From: Craspedostauros australis
Lineage: Eukaryota
Length of the DNA stretch: 32,615 bases
Direction of reading: 5' to 3'
NCBI GenBank assembly: GCA_030167865.1
Contig: JALAGF010006212.1
Coordinates: 1 to 32,615 of the forward strand
Position numbers and translations under genes: made by a program
The notes under the pieces: generated by a model
Told to the model about the DNA's origin: nothing
Databases searched by the model: none
What the model saw: the letters and a program-made list of their open reading frames with translations, nothing else
Part shown: positions 1 to 32,615 of the stretch, piece by piece
Numbering within the stretch: position 1 is the stretch's first letter
Layout: each line of letters begins with the position of its first letter

Positions 1-857
1 GCAATCCGCAGAATGCCCCAGGTGCGGCAGGCCGGAAGACAACACACACATCCTCATGTGTCCCAGCGCTGCGAGCCAGTCCATTTGGGCCAAAGCCATC
101 CTCAAAGTGCGGTCAATCGTGAGACCGCCCACCACCCCACCCGAAGTCGCCCAGCTAGTTTGCACGGCAATCAAGCGCATCACATCTGGAGGCATTCCTC
201 CCTCAGGCATAAGGACGTCGCCCACTCAGAACATCCAGGTGAGACAGGCCAACATCGGTTGGGTAGCTCTAATCTGGGGCGGCTGGTCCACCTCGTGGCG
301 AGACCAGGCCCCTCCAATGGCTCCTCACCGGAGACGACGTGCTCCCAAGCTGCTCCGAGACTGGCAAGTGAGCATCACAAACCTCATGTGGCATACCGTC
401 CTGCAACAGTGGCATGACCGCAACGAAACCAAGGCGGAGCAGACGTCGCAAGGCATGACGGCTCTCCTTCAACAACAGCTTCACCGCCTCCGTACAACAC
501 CCACCGACGCGATCCCAGCAGTGCTGCGACCGCTATGGTCCAACCCACCAGCAACAGCCCAAATCGCCGCCCTAGTCCCGTGGGTCCAAGCGATGCAACA
601 AGGACTCGGCCTCGCGGCACCGGACATCCCGACCGTACTCACCAACTGGATGAAAAACCAGCGACGTCGCCACCGAGCACCAGCCACTCGCCCCTCGAAC
701 CCAGCCTGATGCTGACCCGACCTCAGAGCAGACGCCTCCACACACCGACACCTAGTGTCAATCCGTTCCCGCTGCGTGCATACACGTTGAATCAACGAGG
801 CGGAATAAAAGCGCCCTCGGCGCATGACTTAACAGTTATAATCCGTGTGTTATATAT
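1..857 (+). mobile_element. 3' end of a non-LTR retrotransposon (Ambal-like diatom LINE, clade inferred); continues upstream of the window
   Basis: The frame from nt 2 reads QSAECPRCGRPEDNTHILMCP (CCHC finger), then QANIGWVALIWGGWSTSW and WQVSITNLMWHTVLQQWHDRN, the typical C-terminus of this ORF2 type. It is homologous to 31260-31700. Similarity with the second element stops at GTTATATAT (857). Confidence 0.8.
2..709 (+). CDS. C-terminal part of retrotransposon ORF2 (zinc finger plus Trp-rich C-terminal domain), 5'-partial
   Basis: Open frame from the window edge to TGA 707-709, with a CPRC-x7-H-x3-C motif and no internal stops. Confidence 0.75.
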   Translation, partial: QSAECPRCGRPEDNTHILMCPSAASQSIWAKAILKVRSIVRPPTTPPEVAQLVCTAIKRITSGGIPPSGIRTSPTQNIQVRQANIGWVALIWGGWSTSWRDQAPPMAPHRRRRAPKLLRDWQVSITNLMWHTVLQQWHDRNETKAEQTSQGMTALLQQQLHRLRTTPTDAIPAVLRPLWSNPPATAQIAALVPWVQAMQQGLGLAAPDIPTVLTNWMKNQRRRHRAPATRPSNPA

Positions 858-6275: not shown

Positions 6276-6787
6276 CATTTTTGAGAGAGAGCGGAACTGA
6301 TCGCCCACCACCGCGAAAGCACGAGGCGGCGTGACAACAATGACGAGCCCCAACCCATCACAACATTTGGTTCTGCACAACTGGACAACTGGACAACTGG
6401 ACAAGTGCTATTCCGGAGGTGTCGCAACCCATCTCGTCTCTCGACATCAGGTCATCGACCCTGCGGTCACGAGCAGCATACTAATACCATAGGTCGTATT
6501 CTATAATACGTTGTTCCACCATACGACTACATACGTACTCCTCTGCAAGCTGCTGCCCATCTGAAGAGAGAGAAGAGCACAAGCGCATCCATCGATCTCG
6601 GCGGTTGAGGAAGCTCCAGAATAGTAGCACTCGCAGCAGGTCCTCCACACTCCAACACTCCTCGATCTTTGCACAAAGCCAGGTTGAAGTTCCGCTCACT
6701 TCTGCAACCAAGAGATAGAAGGAGCAAGCCGACACCTCCATCCACCACAGACAACGGCAGCAGGCAACGGCAGCAGGCAAACGCAAG

Positions 6788-9700
6788 ATGGTGGGCTTCC
6801 CCGGCCGCAAGAACTCTGGCCTGTCCACCAACAGCGTGGATGCGGCCGCCGCGACGACGTCGCCATCGCATGGCACGCCTCCCACATCGCTGGGCGTTCC
6901 GGCCGTCGGAATGACGGAAGGCGGCATCCAGACGACATCGGCAGGGTCGCTCAAGTCCTACAACCTCATGTCCAGCCTGGAACGTCAGTACGCGGCGCCC
7001 GTGGGACAGCGCGTCTTCCTCTTCATCGCGGCAAGCCCCGAATGCAGCCTGGAGGGCGGCGTCGAGACCATCCTCAAGTACAAGGCCAAGTCCGCCAGCG
7101 GTCCCAAGCTGTCCGACGGCTCCGTCTCCACATCGCAGCCCTTCGAGGAGCAGCCCGGCGGCGATGACTTTGATGCGTTCGCCTTTCTCAACAACGGCGA
7201 TCAACCGCCGGCGCCCAATGCCGCGCAAATGAACGGCGGTCGCAAGAAGGGCATCGGCGGCTTCTTCCGACAGGTCGCGGCGTCGACGACGGCCACGCTG
7301 GAGCGCCAGATGCAAGGATTGGCGGTGCGCATGGACAAGGGCCGCAATCCGGATGTGCTGCGCGTGGCCATGTACGACGTGCATTCGGGCGAGTTGCTCT
7401 GCGTTTCCGAACCGGAACCCGTGCCGCCGGTCGAAGAAACGTGCCCCGTCAAGTTCGCCGTGCCTCTCGTTGTCGATGGCAAACGTCGTCAGCAGTCATT
7501 CGTGCTCAAGCTGTGGATGCAATCGGGAGCCTCCGTGCTGCAGGCCACGAAGGGATTGGCGCGCAACTACCTCATGGGGCAGGCCACCGTCGATTGCGCC
7601 AAGCTCCTGCCGTTGGCCGGCAGCATCGTGTCCATCCCGCTGTCGAGCCATCTCGTCGTGGGTGGATCGCTGCAGGTCTGCCCGCTGGCCGATGTCAAGT
7701 TCCCCATGCTGTGCACGCGCGGCTGGTCCCTGACGGATCCCGACATGTCGGCCTACTCCTCGCAGCTGGCTTACCTGCCGCTGGATCAGTCCTACCAGAT
7801 CAATCCCTACTCGCCAGAGAACAAGGTCAAGGCGCATGCCAAGTGGCTGCTGGCCACGGAACGCGCGACGGAGACTGCCATCGTCCTGCCCCTCGCAGCG
7901 GCCATCACGGAGGCGGCCACTCGGGCGTGTCACGCGTCCCTCATGCATGCGCAGACCGTCGGTCAGGTTCTGCGTTTGAATCGTCACGACGTCAAGGATC
8001 CCAGCAAGGCGGTGTGCCAGTTCCAGGTCTCGGCCGTGCAGACGGGACCCGCCCCGCCCACCGTGCCACCCGTTGCGGGTTGCATCGTGACCATCGCGTG
8101 GCGACGTCCCGATTCCATCTTTGAGATCGAGCTCGTGGGCAACGATCACACCGTGCCCCTGCTGGTCGACGCACCGCAGGTGCAAACGGACCCCGTCATC
8201 CGGCGCGAATTTTATCCCAAAATGTGCACGACCAACATCCTGCCGTCCATCCTCGATACGTTGGGTGGTCAGCTGCCACCCAGCGGATACCTCCTGGGCG
8301 GTCTCTACATCGGCGTGCAGGTCGTGCGTCGGCGTGGTGGCATCAATTCCGCGGAGCCCATGACGGAGATGTGGGAGACGCAGATCAACCTCGAGACCTT
8401 CGTCAATCATGCCGGCTCGCCGATGCAGGTGCCGCTGTACAAGGAGGGGCAGGTCGCCGGCCACATCCTCATGTCGGTGCAGGTCGCCATGCCGACGCCG
8501 CAGCAGAAGGCCAGCGAGAAGCAGATTCGACCCGCCAAGGAAGGTCTCGTCTCGTTCGTCGGTCTGGACAAGTGGCCCGATGGCGTTGCGCCATTGATGG
8601 ATGACGGTCTGCACGAGAACGAGAACGCCGTGCCCGGTGATCCGTTGCGCAAGCAACAGCTCAGCACGATGGGGCTTTTCTGCACCGTGCCGTACATGGA
8701 TCAGCATCTGCCCATGCGACAGTCGGATTGGGAAGGCTTGCAGGACCGCGCTCTGGCCTACAAGCAGGCCCTGATCCAGCCGCAGCAGGGCATCCGCCCG
8801 CACCAAACGCGCACGCCCAAGTGCTTTCGTCCCAGTTCCAGTCGTCCCACCGTGCTGCTGAGCGGATTGCCGTTCAATGCGCACAACGCCATCCTCAATG
8901 TCATGGACGTGTCGGTGGGATCGCCGCCGCTGTCGTCCGACAACCAGGAACTGCCCGGAGCGCTGTTCCATAACATCACGTGCGGCGCACCGGCAGATCA
9001 CGCACGCGGTTTCGGTAACATCCTGGAGGACCTCACAAAGGCCACAGCGGCGCGTGGTGGATTGCGCCGTCTCGAATCGCAGCGAGCGCAGTGCTACCAC
9101 GAGCTGCAGCAGGCGCAGACCATGCTCATCAACGGAGTTGGCACCTTCCTCGCATCCGTGCGTCCCATCAACCACGTGCCATCGCGGCATGCCGAATTGC
9201 AAGGCCTGCGTCTCAAGGTCTTTGAATGCGTGCAGAATCTGCATCACATCACTTGGCACTGCGCAGTGAGAAGGGCCAACGTCTTCTCGCAGTCGCTGGG
9301 ATTGGCCATCACGAGCTACATGGCCTGCATCAGCGACGTGAGCCGCATCTCCACGACGTGGCCCGAATTGTGGAAGCGCCATGGTTTCCTCGTCAGCTTT
9401 GAGGGTTTGCTGAGCGCCGTCGGCAAGGAGCTCGGCATGATCGAGGATGCCAGCGTCGCCATCGCCATGCTGCGCATGGTGCGCGTGACCTTCGTCAGCG
9501 GCGCAGCACCGCAAGGTGCCGTGGCCGTGCCGTCGTCACCGTACCTCAAATGGCTCTGCATCACGGGCACCGGGGTGGGATCGGCACGTCAGTTTCTCGT
9601 CCAGATCGGTGTCGACGATCAGTACTACCAGCAGCGCATTCCGGCGCCTTTGCAGAACGGAGCCACCGTCCAGATGTTCCCGATCTTGTGGGAGGTCGGC

Positions 9701-10435
9701 GTAGACATTCGACAATGGGGTGCGCACAACGCCAAGAACGTGCAGCAGCAGATGAATCGAGGTGGCGACGACGCGGGCGATCAGCTGACCGCGGAACAGC
9801 AGTCCGCTGCTGCGGAGGCTGGCGGCAGCATCCTGGATGATGACGATGACGACGACGCCGATGACATCCCCGACGACGATGTGCTCGTCGCGCTGAACTA
9901 TGAGGCGCTGCGCAAGATCAACGTGTACACGTACGCCGTCAACCCGCAGAATGTGCCGCCCGAGAAGATCCAGGCTGCGATGCAGCAGGTGTTCGCTCCC
10001 AACGCCAACAACAGCAGCGATGCCGGACAGCAGGACCTCCTACAGGTGCACCCGTCGCTGTCGCTGCTGCATTCCCACATCATCTCGTCGGCAGGCAAGA
10101 TGAACCACAGCATCCTCGACGAGGCCGCCACGATCGCCCAACAGCTGGGCGGCGGTGGGCTCGTGTTCTGCAAATCCGGCAAGGACCGCACGGCCATGCA
10201 CCTGACGTACAAGCAGGCACAATTCGTGGCGCGGTACCAGGATGAGCACGATTCCACGGGCATCATGAAGGACGCCACCATGATGCGGGTGCACGGCACT
10301 CGGTTACCCGTGTGCGAAAAGAATGTGGGAGAGTCGAAGTACGCCTTCAATTCCTTGCAGGTCAAGTTCATGCCCGAGGCGTTGCGGCCGCCCCTCCCGA
10401 CGTTGGCTGGGTTCAAGTTTAGCATTGAAAGTTGA
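6788..10435 (+). CDS. Inositol polyphosphate 4-phosphatase-like protein (CX5R phosphatase)
   Basis: 1215 aa with strong GC3 bias. It carries the C-terminal FCKSGKDRTAM catalytic motif, GFLVSFEGLLSAVGKELGMIED and KNVGESKYAFNSLQ blocks typical of the INPP4 family, and C2-like beta-rich segments N-terminally. Confidence 0.85.
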   Translation: MVGFPGRKNSGLSTNSVDAAAATTSPSHGTPPTSLGVPAVGMTEGGIQTTSAGSLKSYNLMSSLERQYAAPVGQRVFLFIAASPECSLEGGVETILKYKAKSASGPKLSDGSVSTSQPFEEQPGGDDFDAFAFLNNGDQPPAPNAAQMNGGRKKGIGGFFRQVAASTTATLERQMQGLAVRMDKGRNPDVLRVAMYDVHSGELLCVSEPEPVPPVEETCPVKFAVPLVVDGKRRQQSFVLKLWMQSGASVLQATKGLARNYLMGQATVDCAKLLPLAGSIVSIPLSSHLVVGGSLQVCPLADVKFPMLCTRGWSLTDPDMSAYSSQLAYLPLDQSYQINPYSPENKVKAHAKWLLATERATETAIVLPLAAAITEAATRACHASLMHAQTVGQVLRLNRHDVKDPSKAVCQFQVSAVQTGPAPPTVPPVAGCIVTIAWRRPDSIFEIELVGNDHTVPLLVDAPQVQTDPVIRREFYPKMCTTNILPSILDTLGGQLPPSGYLLGGLYIGVQVVRRRGGINSAEPMTEMWETQINLETFVNHAGSPMQVPLYKEGQVAGHILMSVQVAMPTPQQKASEKQIRPAKEGLVSFVGLDKWPDGVAPLMDDGLHENENAVPGDPLRKQQLSTMGLFCTVPYMDQHLPMRQSDWEGLQDRALAYKQALIQPQQGIRPHQTRTPKCFRPSSSRPTVLLSGLPFNAHNAILNVMDVSVGSPPLSSDNQELPGALFHNITCGAPADHARGFGNILEDLTKATAARGGLRRLESQRAQCYHELQQAQTMLINGVGTFLASVRPINHVPSRHAELQGLRLKVFECVQNLHHITWHCAVRRANVFSQSLGLAITSYMACISDVSRISTTWPELWKRHGFLVSFEGLLSAVGKELGMIEDASVAIAMLRMVRVTFVSGAAPQGAVAVPSSPYLKWLCITGTGVGSARQFLVQIGVDDQYYQQRIPAPLQNGATVQMFPILWEVGVDIRQWGAHNAKNVQQQMNRGGDDAGDQLTAEQQSAAAEAGGSILDDDDDDDADDIPDDDVLVALNYEALRKINVYTYAVNPQNVPPEKIQAAMQQVFAPNANNSSDAGQQDLLQVHPSLSLLHSHIISSAGKMNHSILDEAATIAQQLGGGGLVFCKSGKDRTAMHLTYKQAQFVARYQDEHDSTGIMKDATMMRVHGTRLPVCEKNVGESKYAFNSLQVKFMPEALRPPLPTLAGFKFSIES

Positions 10436-12963: not shown

Positions 12964-14478
12964 ATGGAGCGGTAAGTCAGAGACGACCATGGCGAACGAA
13001 AGAATGTGCGGCATGGAGTGTGAAGGCGGCGCAATGGTGGAACGCGACACAACAGCACGTCGTATCGTGTGGCATCGCCCGCATCAGCATTGGAGAACGA
13101 AGCAAGAACAACGCAGCGATGCAACATGGCGCCAACCATGCCATCAGGTGAAGAGAGGTTCTTCCACCGCACCTGAAGGTGTTTGAATCAACCTTGTGAG
13201 ATGGAACCAAGCGGTCATGGTAGCAAAGACAAGACGCTTGGAACCGTCCAACACAGGACCACAGAAAACAGGGAAGGAATTGACCATGGCCATGGCCAAG
13301 AGCTGCGGCGCCGGTGGCCAATGATCAAGTCACGAAGAAAAGTGCGGAAAAACTGTCCGCTGCGGAAACTACAACCAATCTTCCGCGATGGCAGTTTCTT
13401 GCACCTCTTCTTGATCCCATACTCGCAGGTTCTTCGTCGCTCACTCCAACGATCTCCCCTTCCTCTTCTTTCATCTCCGCACACCCAAACAACGGATCGC
13501 CATGTGACACAATGCAACGCAATGAATCACGATGGATCACAATGTAACGACATTCATACCGTTACCAACGTTGCCGCCAACGACCACAGCTATCAAAAGA
13601 TCGAGAAGCCGGATTCCGCGCTTGGAGAAGGAACGTACGGAGTGGTGTACAAGGCCCGCGATCGTCAGACAGATGAGATCGTGGCCCTCAAGCGCATCCG
13701 CCTCGAGGTGGAGGATGAAGGAATCCCATCCACAGCCCTGCGAGAGATCTCCCTGCTTCGTGAGCTCAGGCACGAGAACGTTGTTGACCTCAAGGACTGC
13801 GTCCAGGAGGCAGGCAAGCTGTATCTCGTGTTCGAATTCCTTGACAAGGACTTGAAGAAGTACATGGAGGCATGCGACGGACTCATTTCCCCCATCCTCG
13901 TCAAGTCCTACCTCTTCCAATGCTGCAGAGGTTTGGCATTCTGCCATGCCCGTGGCGTCATGCACCGCGATCTCAAGCCGCAGAATCTCCTCGTCACACG
14001 TGATGGACGCCTCAAGCTGGCAGATTTCGGTCTGGCCAGAGCGTTCTGCCCACCCATCAGACCGCTCACCCACGAGGTCGTCACACTGTGGTACCGCCCA
14101 CCAGAGATCCTTCTCGGATCGCAAACGTACGCACCACCTGTCGATGTCTGGGCAATCGGAACGATCTTCGTCGAGATGGTCACCAAGCGCCCCCTCTTCC
14201 CAGGAGACTCCGAGATCGACCAGCTCTACAAGATCTTCCGACAGCTCGGAACGCCAACGGATGAGGTCTGGCCAGGCGTCACGCAGCTGCAGGACTGGAA
14301 CCCTGCCTTCCCGAAATGGTACAAGAAGCCATACGGCCAGAATGTCACAAGTCAGCTGGATCACGTCGGGCTCGACTTGCTGGAACAGCTCTTGGCGTAC
14401 GCACCAAAGGACCGTATCACTGCCAAGGACTCATTGAACCACCCATACTTTGATGATCTGGACAAGGAGAACATCTAA
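12964..14478 (+). CDS. CDKA2: Cyclin-dependent kinase, PSTALRE type; join(12964..12971,13590..14478), 298 aa
   Basis: ATGGAGCG|GTAAGT...CACAG|CTATCAA splices to MERYQKIEK. Kinase motifs [29 protein letters not shown] and [10 protein letters not shown] are present. PSTALRE is the hallmark of diatom CDKA2. Confidence 0.92.
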
Positions 14479-23713: not shown

Positions 23714-24122
23714 GATGGCTCATGCGATGGTTGCGGATGGATGGTGATAGGGAATGTGAGGTGGGAACAGATCGACGACTTTCTGATACCACAACAGACA
23801 GAGACAGACAGAGCTGCAAGAACAAACGCCAAAGGAAGAAAAAGTGTGCGCAGAAGTTGTGACGAACAAACACAGAGGATTTGTGAAGAGAAAGAGAAAA
23901 AGGCCAAAACCGTTCCAACCGCCAAATGACCAAACAATGACCTCGCTCACGTCGAATAGTATCGAGTCGATGCGACCCATCATTTCTCCGAAGCCACGAA
24001 TCACAGGTTTCGGCGAAATCGAACAAGCTCAGAAAAAGAGATCTTTCCACCCCAACCAAGCCATCAACACCATCAACATCATCAACACATCTGTGATCTT
24101 CGTGGTTGTGACTGAGATCGGA

Positions 24123-24186
24123 GTTGCGTTGCGTTGCGTTGCGTTGCGTTGCGTTGCGTTGCGTTGCGTTGCGTTGCGTTGCGTTG
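24123..24186. repeat. (GTTGC)12 microsatellite
   Basis: Twelve perfect units plus a partial one, between the divergent Cys-repeat and fabI loci. Confidence 0.95.
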
Positions 24187-24306
24187 GATATGGTTACAAG
24201 CGTGATCATCTCCAATGGAGACCACATCACGAAGCATTCCAGATGAGAGAGTCGCTCTGCATCCGAAACTACATCCGCAACTCTCTCATGAGAGCACACC
24301 ACCACA

Positions 24307-25175
24307 ATGAGCATCCAACAAGCTCAACGACCGCTCGCATTGGTCTTGGGGGTTGCGAATGCCAGATCCATTGCATGGAACTGCGTCCGCTCCTTCCTCA
24401 ACAACAACTACGATGTCATCCTCACGTATCAGAATGAAAAGATCGGCACCAAGGTGGAACGGATGATGCACAAGCACATCGAACAGCAGCAACAACAACA
24501 TGATACACAACAGCAACATGATACACAACAGCAACACCAACACCAACAACATCCATCATTGACAGGCCTCATCTGCGATGTCCAACACGATATCCCAAAA
24601 CTCTTTCAACACGTGTCACAACACCATCGTCCATTGCATGCCATCGTGCATTCCGTGGCATTTGCCAACAACCTGCACCGACCCTTGCTGAATACCACCT
24701 TGGAAGACTACTGTATCAAGAGGCCCACGCCATCTCAGCATACTCCCTCATCGAACTGGCACGACACGCACAGCCTCACATGGAACACCACTCCAGCATC
24801 ACAGCCTTGACGTACTTGGGATCAGTGCACGCCATCCCATCGTATCATGTCATGGGACCGGCCAAGGCCAGCCTGGAATCCATCGTGCGCGGTCTGGCAC
24901 TGGAGATGGCACCTGTGCTTGTCAACATGGTCAGCGCGGGTCCCTTGAACACGGTGGTGGCCAAGGGTGGCATCACCAAGTTTGGAGCAATGCGACAGGA
25001 GATGCAGGAGCGTGCACCGTTGGGAAATGTGACAGCGGATGAGGTTGCGGACATGGTGTCATTCTTGTTGATGGGTGGGACAGGCATCACAGGTCAGACG
25101 ATCTATGTGGATGGCAGGTACAGCATCGTTGGTGGTCCGGCAGTTGATGGTCCAGCGGTGGATTCTGATTTGTAG
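24307..25175 (+). pseudogene. fabI: Enoyl-ACP reductase (bacterial FabI type), frameshifted near 24712-24722
   Basis: First frame: LVLGVANARSIAW, LTYQ, CDV, IVHSVAFA. Second frame: AHAISAYSLIELAR, LTYLGS, YHVMGPAKASLE, SAGPLNT, ITGQTIYVDG. There is no room for an intron at the shift. A sequencing error remains possible. Confidence 0.75.
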
Positions 25176-25874: not shown

Positions 25875-26497
25875 TGGTGGCATCCCTACACGTCCACTTC
25901 CACGTTCATGGCAATAGCAACACTTGCGAATATGACACAACATAATATTATATCATATNGTATCATATAANAATANAGTATTGTGTTATGGAGCATAACA
26001 CCAGGGACCAGGAAAACAAACACAGTAGAAACATGTAAAGATAGTATTCTACAAAATGAATGCAAACACCGAAACCGCACCGACGTCAACGGGTGTCAAC
26101 CATAGAAAAGATACAGAAGTGAGGCCAACAGCAGCAACAATGGCAGGCAAAGCAATGGTAAATCATAAGGAGACTGCCAACGGCATNNNNNNNNNNNNNN
26201 NNNNNNNNNNNNNNNNNNNNNNNNNNNNNNNNNNNNTGGTGGCATCCCTACACGTCCACTTCCACGTTCATGGCAATAGCAACACTTGCGAATATGACAC
26301 AACATAATATTATATCATATGGTATCATATAAAAATATAGTATTGTGTTATGGAGCATAACACCAGGGACCAGGAAAACAAACACAGTAGAAACATGTAA
26401 AGATAGTATTCTACAAAATGAATGCAAACACCGAAACCGCACCGACGTCAACGGGTGTCAACCATAGAAAAGATACAGAAGTGAGGCCAACAGCAGC
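25875..26497 (+). repeat. Identical 261-nt direct duplication (25875-26135 = 26237-26497) around an N gap
   Basis: Offset 362 nt, identical apart from Ns. The second copy is bounded by gaps on both sides, so this is probably an assembly artefact. Confidence 0.8.
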
Positions 26498-28849: not shown

Positions 28850-31800
28850 AGGCTCCAGTGAGCATCCTACCAGGCCGTGGCGACAAGTGCAGGTATGATG
28901 CGAATCTTCCAGGTGGTAGGAAGCAAGTGGTCAATGGTGGTTCCACAGTCGTGGTGGGCAAGTGTGGCCGAATGAGCATCTGCAGCACAGCTGGAAGTGC
29001 AAACGGTGGAGGATCTGATACAACCAAGGAGGCAGGGTGATCGCCCAATAATGGAAGCCATTGTGGAGCTGTTTAACAGGGAGGAAATGCGACATGTGAA
29101 TCTGTGTCGAAGGTCAATGAAGTTGTTCTGGATGTCTGAGATCGTTTCGGCGGACAGAACAGGCATTCTGAAGGCGGTCCTTGAAGATGATGGAGCGATG
29201 GTGGAAGCCAGTGAAGTGAACGTGCCTAGAGTTGGGCGGCTCAAGNAAGCGTATTGGGCAACATGGAGGTCCAAGCTCAAGGAGATGCTGGGTCGGAATA
29301 GCGTGCTTCAGGATCGTTTACGGCTGGGCAAGTGGAGCAAGACAGGCAGTGCAACCTCCATGAGGTAGAATGAGCAAACTGGGAGGCTTCAGGTCCATGG
29401 CGATGGATGGATGGAATGGAGGGAGGTTCCAATGAAGTCAAGAAGGAAGCTGCTTTGGCAAGTGCCGGGAGTGGTGGGAAATGGAGAAGGGTCCCTTTGN
29501 NNNNNNNNNNNNNNNNNNNNNNNNNNNNNNNNNNNNNNNNNNNNNNNNNTACAAGCAAGGAGATGGCATACTGATGCTGGCAGTTGGCGAATGGGATGAT
29601 ACCGTGGTGGCAGATACCCAGGGGATGGAGAATTTCTGGGAAGGTCTTGGCAAGGCCAAGTCATGGGCTGTGAAACACATCAGATGCGAGGTTGACTGGA
29701 GAGATATGGCCCAGAGTATACAAGAAGAGACAGCAGTCGGCAGAAGTGACAGATCTGCCAGAAATGGCAAGGGAATTGTCAACATCTAGGTCGGAATTTA
29801 GGCTAACATCACACATGACTGGAACGTGATTCGACTCGATTGATAGTATAGTCGAATGAGTCTTGATGATGCGAATGGTGTTCGGGTTCTATTGTCATCA
29901 GATNNNNNNNNNNNNNNNNNNNNNNNNNNNNNNNNNNNNNNNNNNNNNNNNNNNTCCGAGGAATCAAGAATAAGTGATAGTCATGGTATGCTGACTTGTC
30001 TAGTGACGCCAGGTGCATCAGTGAGCACGTGGTAACAACAATTAGGAAATAGTCTTGTGATGTCAGGGATGATGCAAGCAATCTACTGACGTCGACGGTT
30101 AGGATATATGAGTCCTATGGGATTCTAAGACCAGCCAAGACCAGGCAAGATTAGACAAGATCAGACAGAGATGTAGAAAGACCCAAGAGGAGAAATAACA
30201 CGAGTTACTGCGCAAAGCAGACAACATCCTTGGGCAACAAAGTAGACAATATGCACGATGTAACACGAAGACATCGAGCAGATCAGTAGGAAGACCTGAT
30301 GATGAATCAGGCAAGATCGTAGAAATGGTGCATGAATGCATCAGATTAGGATGAGTGAGATCTTGTGCTCACAATTCACACTCAATCATCAATTGACACA
30401 CTAACTTAGCAACAACCAAATACACCAAACATCTCCAACTTCACCTATTGGATTGATCACCCAGGCGGCGTCGTAAGTGCAGTGTTTGGTGCTCCCCTCT
30501 TGTCCTGTGTGTAATTGCTGATTATCAGGAATGGCGGCATGGGCGATGACCACTAATGAGACTCTGGAGGTGACAGTGTTTAGAACCTTTGAAGCTCCGC
30601 AGAGGGAGGGCCTGACATCGTCCCAGCGAGCGGAGTTGGCGAGAATCTACGGTGCGCCAATGAAGGTTTGGGAAATGGAGGAGAGGTTTGGACTACAAGA
30701 CGGACGGGGGCGCTGAAGCTGTGACAACCTGAAAGCCCTGAAGGTGCTGGAGTGGGTACATGAACCGGATCTGGCGAGTCCTGGTCACGACATGATGGTG
30801 GCTGCCATGAGGGGCCGAAGCCAGCTGAGTACAACGCTTGTGGGACGACACGTGAGTGGGCATCAGGACGAGCACAAGAAGCCTGACAAACTTGATGTGT
30901 GGGAGCATATGAATGTCATTACGGACCAGATCGCAGTACAGCAATGACGAATGCTCGAAGAGGGCGATGCGTGGAGCTCTCACCAGAACACAGGGACGTG
31001 ATTGTGGCACATTGCAAGACAAGGCGTTCGCAGGTCGAGCATCACATATGTCAGTGTTGTTGGAGATGTGGTGGAGGCGAACATGGCGAGGGTCAGGGTG
31101 GAGCGAGGCATGAAGGTGATTGGTTGTGATGCCAACAAAGCGTGCAACGACGGGTGGCGGGCAAGCTCACCAATACACAGAGGGTGCTCACCATGGAGCT
31201 CACAATACAGGAGGTGGCTGTGGGAATGCAGATGGTTTGGTAGAAGGCAAGGACGAGTGACAGCTGCCCCAGGTGCGGCAAGATGGAAACTCATGGCCAC
31301 CTCTGGGTCTGCTGCTCACTGGAATTGATGGCATTTTGGAAAGTGCAGCGGAAACGGCTGAGGATCACGATGTGGAAGATGCCAACTCATCCTGCCATTG
31401 CGAAAATAGGGTTGAGCAATGTCAAGCAAGTGTTGAGAGGGCTGGGACCTGTTGGACGCATATGCACAAACTGGGCTGAGGCAAAGCTGATGGACAATCA
31501 ACAGGAGGCAGGATGGGATTGGCTGGTCACNGGCGTGATCGTGGGGTCATGGACCGAGTTACAGGAGCAGTACTACGCGCAAATCGGTCGGAGGCTGTCC
31601 ACAGCAAGGTGGGCGGCACGGATCGTGCGCAAGCTCTGGAAGGTGGCATGGGAGCATTGGCACCAATGCAATCAGGCGATGCATTGCACTGATGAGGGGC
31701 CAGAGGCTCACATGAGGCAGGTGTTGCAAGACTACAGCTCAACCCTGCAAGACGCAGTGCAACTACGAGGGCCAAGCATGGTTATGTGGGCCTGACTACA

Positions 31801-31930: not shown

Positions 31931-32615
31931 CTGGCCATCGTGAACAAGGCTGTCCCTAGATTTTCCTGTGTGAGTACGCAAATACATACACCTTACATAT
32001 TACCAGAGAGCCACGAATAGTGGAGAGCAGGATAGGTGGAGGCTGTCGTGATCCCCTGAGCGTGCATACATATTGACTTGATAGCCATTCTGCCTTGTGC
32101 CCTACATGAGATAAAAGCGGGTGGCATAAAAAAGTTTACGGCGCAGGCTGGGCACACACTAATAAGATTAATCCATGGGTTATATATAGTGCAATGAAGC
32201 ACAGTGACTTATCCTTTGGTATGAAAAATATATTTTATTGAACACTTAGGTTTGTTTGTAAATACAAAGTCCTGCTGAACCTGCTTTGCTCNNNNNNNNN
32301 NNNNNNNNNNNNNNNNNNNNNNNNNNNNNNNNNNNNNNNNNNNNNNNNNNNNNNNNNNNNNNNNNTTTTACTTGTTGTTTCTGGTGTTGTGATGTGAGTG
32401 CTTGCAGGTTCACTGACACTGAAACAAGAAGTTGAGAGGAGAGCAGATGAACAACAGCCAAAAGCCAACAATGACTGTTCGCGACGACCAGCAGAGAGGA
32501 GGTCCAAGCACACAGGCAGGGAATAGACCTAAAGCAAGGACGAGGCTGTACAATTGAGTGGGTACATGGAGGGAAGGCAATGTGTGCTGAATGGGACGTG
32601 GACGAAGCTCAACCT

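Follow-up and report, generated by a model that had tools for sequence, protein, structure and literature searches.

The R2 protein uses the structured 3′ untranslated region (UTR) of R2 to start target-primed reverse transcription, and elements of the I clade carry an RNase H domain. In the stringent long interspersed nuclear elements (LINEs) of the L2 clade, retrotransposition depends on a 3′ stem-loop to which the cognate protein of open reading frame (ORF) 2 binds, as described in the available text of two sources (PMC4176376, PMC3747384); UnaL2 ends in TGTAA repeats and the I element in TAA repeats, endings that the available part of the second source links to template slippage (PMC3747384). 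The window analysed here, 32,615 nt of Craspedostauros australis DNA (contig JALAGF010006212.1, positions 1 to 32,615), contains the 3′ ends of two diverged LINE copies, a left copy at its start and a right copy near its end. The left copy closes with an RNA module of about 95 nt consisting of four helices (P1 to P4), an invariant single strand with the consensus UAAUCnnUGAGUUA, and a short repeat tail. By analogy with stringent-type LINEs, this module is probably the signal by which the RNA of the element is recognised as template and primed for target-primed reverse transcription.

The resemblance between the two copies was reported in an earlier note as four ordered blocks, and comparison of the two copies in the 32.6-kb window shows that these, which lie downstream of ORF ends at 2-709 and 31244-31795, read exactly as claimed: block A at 774-790 (left) and 32060-32076 (right), block B at 799-810 and 32120-32131, block C at 818-824 and 32139-32145, and block D at 839-857 and 32169-32187. 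The offset from B to C is 19 nt in both copies, four of the six mismatches within blocks are CpG transitions, and both copies lack poly(A), each as the note had it. The similarity exceeds chance. The patterns of A and D each occur at only two sites in the window with up to three mismatches allowed, and two matches were seen in 0/100 shuffles; an ungapped segment comparison of 701-960 with 31941-32291 yielded two segments scoring at least 10 (0.09 expected per shuffle) and one scoring at least 12, a value reached in none of 200 shuffles. The spacers between stop codon and module have no block in common. An abrupt end of similarity had been claimed after TATATAT, but an 11/12 match, TCCWTTGGTATG, does follow at 864-875 and 32212-32223, lying 6 nt past the left tail and 24 nt past the right; its score of 9 is at chance level, with 1.31 segments of at least 8 expected per shuffle. 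We considered this match as a fifth block (E) and rejected it because of this score; nor is it seen again after the tails of metagenome relatives, its three matches in the 80 loci described below lying within the ORF, before the module, or on the opposite strand. There is also an alternative register between the copies, in which ATAAAAGCG at 805-813 corresponds to 32111-32119.

The features of the left copy are as follows.

2-709, plus strand: C-terminal 235 codons of the LINE ORF, open, with the stop codon at 707-709; the 5′ side of the ORF is cut by the start of the window
within 2-709, plus strand: Cys-His knuckle CPRCG..E...H...C, then a helical domain, at the end of the left ORF
710-759, plus strand: unconserved 3′ UTR spacer from the stop codon to the module; the model match begins at 760
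760-852, plus strand: structured 3′ module, a full-length match to covariance model R1 (35.1 bits)
762-768, plus strand: P1 5′ strand, UCCGU-U-C with bulged U767, pairing with 799-804 in the model alignment; P1 covaries in the family
769-798, plus strand: P2 region, variable in the family and containing block A (774-790); a local insertion in the model
799-810, plus strand: block B, comprising the P1 3′ strand GGCGGA (799-804) and the junction AUAAAA (805-810), from the model alignment
811-824, plus strand: P3 hairpin GCGCC-CUC-GGCGC (811-815 with 819-823) and invariant A824, from fold and model
825-838, plus strand: P4 hairpin UGACU-UAAC-AGUUA (825-829 with 834-838), from the model alignment
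839-852, plus strand: terminal single strand, invariant in the family (consensus UAAUCnnUGAGUUA) and reading UAAUCCGUGUGUUA here; it forms the core of block D, from the model and locus alignment
853-857, plus strand: tail, (UA)n together with the preceding UA, and the 3′ end of the element, from the tail analysis and the contigs of run X1

Set against this structure, the four blocks are not the equal units that they had been taken for. Block B is the 3′ strand of P1 plus the AAA junction, block C (818-824 in the left copy) is the 3′ strand of P3, and block D is the terminal single strand with the (TA)n tail; these three are strands of the module, whereas block A is lineage-specific; in the left copy it lies inside P1, and in the right copy it precedes P1 as modelled. 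The 5′ strand of P1 at 762-768 had been missed. One proposed local hairpin, GCGCC/GGCGC, is P3 and is supported by covariation, and the other, CGTTG/CAACG, is located in P2, where the hairpins GCGUG/CACGU and CGUUG/CAACG overlap and are therefore mutually exclusive. The proposed pairing of A with D did not hold up: the right copy pairs at five of seven positions, with one compensated change and two disruptions, and the mutual information of the variable positions of D with all other columns is at most 0.47 bit (n=26). We rejected the pairing. In the family as a whole, P1 has the consensus GUCGU-U-C / G-GCGAC with an invariant bulged U, forming a long irregular hairpin that encloses the variable P2; the single-stranded junction after P1 ends in an invariant AAA; and P3 and P4 have the consensus forms GCGC-nnn-GCGC and nUAGn-loop-nCUAn.

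Relatives outside this genome provide an independent test, since the metagenome loci were fetched by protein alone with the motif unused. The sample is the best 80 of 230 relative-encoding stretches, ranked by similarity to the left copy (21-30% identity). Covariance model R1 was built from 13 metagenome sequences only, the left copy not being among them, and it matches at full length in 42/80 loci at E<1e-3 and more weakly in 12 others (E<=10); all 54 matches have the orientation of the ORF and follow it. Likewise, 34 of the 80 loci carry the core of block D, AATCnnTGnGTTA, in the ORF orientation beyond the domain, and no locus has it on the opposite strand. The left copy scores 35.1 bits over the full model (E 1.1e-5 for 256 kb; 1.4e-6 for the window alone with filters off). 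For comparison, among 47 control loci that carry an exact block D by chance (10 from viral and 37 from prokaryote collections), the best scores 21.2 bits and the remainder at most 13.8. The module begins 76-575 nt past the end of the domain match in the loci, showing that spacer length is variable. With up to three mismatches allowed, block A is absent from the ORF strand of all 80 loci (there is a single three-mismatch match on the opposite strand of L121), and it is thus lineage-specific and unconserved outside the copies in this genome. Conservation of the module goes beyond that of the ORF: the left copy has 23-32% amino acid identity with the loci in the adjacent domain and 45-75% nucleotide identity in the module, the medians over all 587 pairs are 40% and 63% respectively, and the spacer is unconserved. 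The earlier claim that the 3′ ends of these retroelements carry a structured, cis-located RNA that is lineage-wide is therefore borne out by its presence in protein-fetched relatives and by strong covariation. No additional stand-alone R1 match is present in the window or in any of the 80 loci, although no dedicated search for partner short interspersed nuclear elements (SINEs) was made.

Covariation is seen with and without fitting to the model. Most of 26 single-sequence minimum free energy folds share one architecture, as read from their brackets. RNAalifold applied to the raw 26-sequence MAFFT alignment returned only two pairs because the variable P2 is out of register, a problem solved by using a 13-sequence subset and the covariance model. 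When 13 sequences are aligned plainly with MAFFT, standard pairs occupy 88.7% of 336 pair cells, compared to 30-54% when partners are slid by one to three columns, and there are 48 double-change cells compared to 10-14 in the slid controls. The model-fitted alignment A7 (43 matches, 38 distinct rows), whose counts are biased toward the structure to which it was fitted, has 88.0% of 870 cells paired (30-55% slid) and compensatory changes in 24 of 26 pairs (8-12 slid), and none of 500 shuffles reaches the observed values; the unfitted MAFFT alignment agrees with it. P3 covaries between GC and CG and between CG and UA, and the closing pair of P4 appears among the 38 rows as UA, CG, GC, AU and GU. 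Both differences between the two window copies within block B are matched by changes in the 5′ strand of P1, such that G765-C801 in the left copy corresponds to A32087-U32122 in the right, and U762-A804 to G32084-C32125. Nearly all invariant letters are unpaired; they comprise the bulged U, the AAA at the junction (in 37-38 of 38 distinct rows), the A after P3, and the UAAUC, UG and GU of the terminal strand (invariant in 35-36 of the rows with letters there).

The right copy departs considerably from this pattern, and its features are the following.

28850-31795, plus strand: decayed ORF remnants in several frames with N gaps, colinear by tblastn with residues ~1100-1870 of full-length relatives
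31244-31795, plus strand: C-terminal domain, by homology to the left ORF end
32060-32076, plus strand: block A, here on the 5′ side of P1 as modelled, in contrast to the left copy, from the block comparison and model alignment
32082-32182, plus strand: weak match to model R1 (17.7 bits; E 0.16 for 256 kb, 0.02 for the window with filters off)
32183-32187, plus strand: (UA)n tail, from the sequence

Its P1 has the 5′ strand GCCAU-U-C (32084-32090) paired with GGUGGC (32120-32125), followed by the junction AUAAAA. The 5′ strand of P3 has been replaced, all seven nucleotides between B and C differing from the left copy, with C following at 32139-32145 and the single-stranded part of D at 32169-32182. 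The kinship of the right copy with the left is drawn from the colinear blocks. Because a second ATAAAAGCG is present and the 5′ strand of P3 is lost, the right copy seems to be rearranged in addition to decayed. We note that the segment 32045-32131 has a consensus-like GTCGTGATC 5′ of block A and a second P1-like 5′ strand, GCCATTC, 3′ of it, and that the second ATAAAAGCG at 32111-32119 directly precedes GGTGGCATAAAA; this segment may be an internal duplication or a template-switch chimera.

The 3′ ends of the relatives are marked by short tandem repeats. Among 40 matches whose 3′ ends are uncut, 36 have a tandem tail (a 2-5-nt unit present in at least two tandem copies, the first beginning within the final 4 nt of the module), and a run of poly(A) follows the module in none of the 40. 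After GAGUUA there are 2-6 copies of a unit that repeats its last letters (TTA, TTAA, TTTA, GTTA or TA); a module ending in GAGTTT is followed by the unit GTTT, and one ending in GAGTTG by GTTGA. In three pairs of loci with identical modules (L071/L077, L099/L103 and L081/L082) the tails differ in length and the flanks are unrelated. The same boundary is seen in the public run X1, the one run with part of the stretch (23% of sampled words), whose label as RNA is a guess, examined as contigs: one contig reproduces the window exactly from 820 on, flank included, and two others match from 819/820 to 857 and then diverge. Because the X1 contigs diverge and the flanks after identical modules are unrelated, the motif belongs to the element, not to its target, and position 857 is the end of the element.

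Both copies appear to be members of an apurinic/apyrimidinic endonuclease (APE)-type non-LTR retrotransposon (LINE) family, LTR denoting long terminal repeat. The ORF ends of the two copies share homology at 25% identity (E 3e-14), and a profile of both finds 2234 relatives at E<=1e-3 in a library of 1.84 billion proteins, these relatives being protein clusters at 50% identity. The C-terminal domain is always at the C-terminus of the long relatives (1800-1940 aa). A reverse transcriptase (RT) domain, RVT_1, is found in six of eight long relatives at E<=0.01 (two above the Pfam cut-off), and Exo_endo_phos (APE) in four of the eight at E<=0.01 (three above the cut-off). Within the window itself neither Pfam nor tblastn finds RT or APE homology; the left copy is cut by the start of the window, and the right copy is colinear only from about residue 1100 of its relatives onward, which fits 5′ truncation. 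The window repeat list, the extent of this search, has no LTRs around the copies. The nearest Atlas clusters are labelled 'Eukaryota, commonest Bacillariophyta', with very few of their members labelled, and the LINE family is probably carried by diatoms.

The C-terminal domain has the pattern CPRCG..E...H...C, then ...IGW...G....W...Q..Y......G.RW....I.KLW..AWD.W.HRN (window 2-706 and 31244-31792; proteins P0002-P0151). Neither ORF end matches a Pfam family, and a word-indexed search of longer proteins with the left ORF end gave no match. The zf-RVT family (PF13966), tried for the Cys-His knuckle, reaches E<=1 in 5 of 25 members (best E 0.037), all below the gathering score, and is present in 63% of the members of one Atlas neighbour cluster (score 0.90). 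An AlphaFold model of the domain is all-helical with a predicted local distance difference test (pLDDT) value of 85.9. Foldseek found nothing at E<=1e-3 with this model; a VIA-wide fold search gave a best Z of 5.8, while an R2Tg chain reached Z 5.2, level with many unrelated helical proteins, which is noise for helical models; and a sequence search of the Protein Data Bank found no match for a full-length relative or a seven-sequence profile. Between the RT and the C-terminal domain, the consensus of seven full-length relatives has a D..E..D..D pattern that we take to be RNase H-like; its motifs ..DGS.., ..RSEL.., ..ACD..SAL.. and ..HVKGHQD....N..MD.LAK lie at residues ~1399-1545 of the first sequence of alignment A8 and at window 30522-30947, and no Pfam RNase H model matched this region at the thresholds used.

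Position, strand, structure, the invariant single strand and the tail together are the design of a stringent-type LINE, and it is from this combination that recognition by the RT is proposed. The 3′ ends have two marks of the stringent type, with covariation-supported stem-loops and short tandem repeats in place of poly(A). We infer by analogy that the element's own ORF2 protein would bind the folded module and thereby select its own RNA as template, that the single-stranded end and tail would be placed at the nicked target for target-primed reverse transcription, and that slippage of the RT on the terminal nucleotides could generate the variable tail.

Several observations weigh against this reading. 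First, the 80 loci are a biased sample, put at a tenth of the family, and 26 of them are without an R1 match; most of these end too soon, and five have at least 670 nt of downstream DNA. Secondly, a second 3′ class of 13 loci (L072, L075, L076, L085, L086, L093, L094, L100, L101, L107, L108, L118 and L122) has only the P3/P4-proximal part and block D in common with the others, being composed of ATAGGCAGTAG, a P4-like hairpin, TAATCAATGAGTTA and repeat tails, with an upstream part unlike P1 and P2. From the matchless loci and this second class it follows that the full module is common in the family and not universal, and that its terminal part is the most widely kept. Thirdly, the 17.7 bits of the right copy are within the range of the controls that carry block D only, its P3 5′ strand is replaced and its block A is outside the modelled P1; neither 3′ region taken alone folds more stably than its own shuffles (z -0.54 and +0.62); and the bias of the A7 counts has been mentioned above. 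Lastly, the available part of one source places the RNA-binding region of zebrafish L2 between endonuclease and RT (PMC4176376), and this gives no link of the C-terminal domain to RNA here.

A more elaborate arrangement, which we regard as doubtful, is a two-part device of an uncatalogued kind, in which the helices would dock on the element's own C-terminal Cys-His/helical domain and UAAUCnnUGAGUUA would act as a telomerase-like template whose last 2-5 nt are copied repeatedly. The RT would in this way lay down the tail at the nicked target and only then proceed into the element. Were this so, the module would be a portable tag capable of directing any RNA, whether a SINE or an engineered cargo, into diatom genomes.

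Aside from recognition by the RT, the module might serve the formation of the RNA 3′ end, its stability or its export, either as a polyadenylation or termination signal or as a protective 3′ structure. The junction reads AUUAAA, UAUAAA, AUAAAA or GAUAAA in many members and includes AAUAAA in the left copy; such hexamers resemble poly(A) signals, and LINEs without poly(A) need some way to define their RNA end. However, none of the 40 uncut ends has poly(A), the tails being 2-5-nt repeats, and only AAA is invariant in the junction, with no hexamer conserved and a distance of about 45 nt from the end; the conserved hexamer 10-30 nt before a poly(A) tail that characterizes a polyadenylation signal is thus absent. 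Moreover, a linear signal does not need four covarying helices. We therefore consider this role unlikely as the explanation of the module, although it could coexist with recognition by the RT. The ribozyme raised as an option in the earlier note, which would cleave itself and so cut read-through transcripts back to the element's 3′ end, is very improbable. Ribozymes are known in other retroelements and a multi-helix RNA with invariant unpaired nucleotides can resemble a catalytic core, but nothing points to one here: there is no Rfam match at gathering or permissive thresholds, and copies of one element differ in the length of the tail that follows the core, a poor fit to a fixed cleavage site. 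Least credible of all is that the shared sequence is host DNA, either a preferred target site or another repeat that both elements entered, for which the 11/12 match just past both tails could be cited, but that match scores no better than chance and none of the loci has it after the tail, the module is found past the ORF, always on the ORF strand, in 54/80 loci from other sources, and the flanks are unrelated directly after the tails of identical modules, as are those of the X1 contigs that diverge at 857.

Several other features of the window can be described. A 729-codon stop-to-stop frame with leucine-rich repeats (Pfam LRR_1 and LRR_14) occupies 795-2981 on the minus strand and converges on the left copy; it continues without a stop for about 60 nt antisense to the LINE 3′ end, as far as its stop at 792-794. 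The LINE insertion may have replaced the C-terminus of this gene, or the arrangement may be a coincidence. A 261-nt direct repeat with 99% identity (25875-26135 and 26237-26497, spaced 362 nt) borders runs of N shortly before the right copy and could be a tandem duplication or an assembly artefact. Host genes encode a protein kinase domain (13177-14475, plus strand; Pkinase, E 3.6e-69) and a short-chain dehydrogenase or enoyl-ACP reductase-like domain (24522-25172, plus strand; adh_short_C2, E 1.3e-35). A 1238-codon open frame at 6719-10432 has no Pfam match, and a (GTTGC)n microsatellite of about 16 units lies at 24113-24192.

The earlier note did not recognise the module as a described one, and this is correct in that it is absent from Rfam, where the window and seven loci have no match at gathering scores and give only snoRNA noise at E<=10 and E<=1; its design is known from stringent-type LINEs, however, and the novelty is lower than was claimed. 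The diatom and non-LTR literature searched, also by motif strings, has no description of the 3′ end of this family, a coverage outside which supplements, subscription journals and Repbase fall, and the module may have been described before. This kind of element is well known; the family, the four-helix form and the invariant strand appear to be uncatalogued. The module adds to Rfam's missing entries a covariation-supported RNA family, and it gives an exact 3′ boundary to a LINE family of aquatic eukaryotes that is very large and has been little described. R1 can be used to annotate these elements and any SINEs that might borrow their tail. P1 to P4, the invariant strand and the tail are mutational targets for studying template recognition by a LINE outside animals, and they offer guidance for the design of cargo if such elements come to serve gene insertion in diatoms. 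The general picture of how stringent LINEs function is unchanged.

Comparison with the described systems places this family closest to the stringent type, with partial likenesses elsewhere. It resembles R2 in having a structured 3′ UTR at the element end, with the fold match to the R2Tg target-primed reverse transcription structure at noise level (Z 5.2), and differs from it in that R2 has a restriction-like endonuclease and a fixed ribosomal DNA target, whereas the family here has an APE endonuclease in its long relatives, and unrelated flanks. The Drosophila I element (I clade) similarly has a repeat tail in place of poly(A), there the trinucleotide TAA according to the available text (PMC3747384); like I-clade elements, the present family shows an RNase H-like pattern, which is unconfirmed by Pfam, and sequence searches gave no solved-structure homologue. 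The likeness to UnaL2, ZfL2-1 and ZfL2-2 is that a conserved stem-loop RNA closes the 3′ end and a short tandem repeat takes the place of poly(A) after it, as far as the available parts of three sources describe them (PMC4176376, PMC3747384, PMC1636434). The present family differs from these in several respects: the single hairpin of UnaL2 and ZfL2 is replaced by four helices over about 95 nt with an invariant single strand of 14 nt, the module has no counterpart in Rfam, subfamilies differ in their tail unit (TTA, TTAA, TTTA, GTTA, GTTT and TA), and the protein is ~1800-1940 aa in length with a long C-terminal extension.

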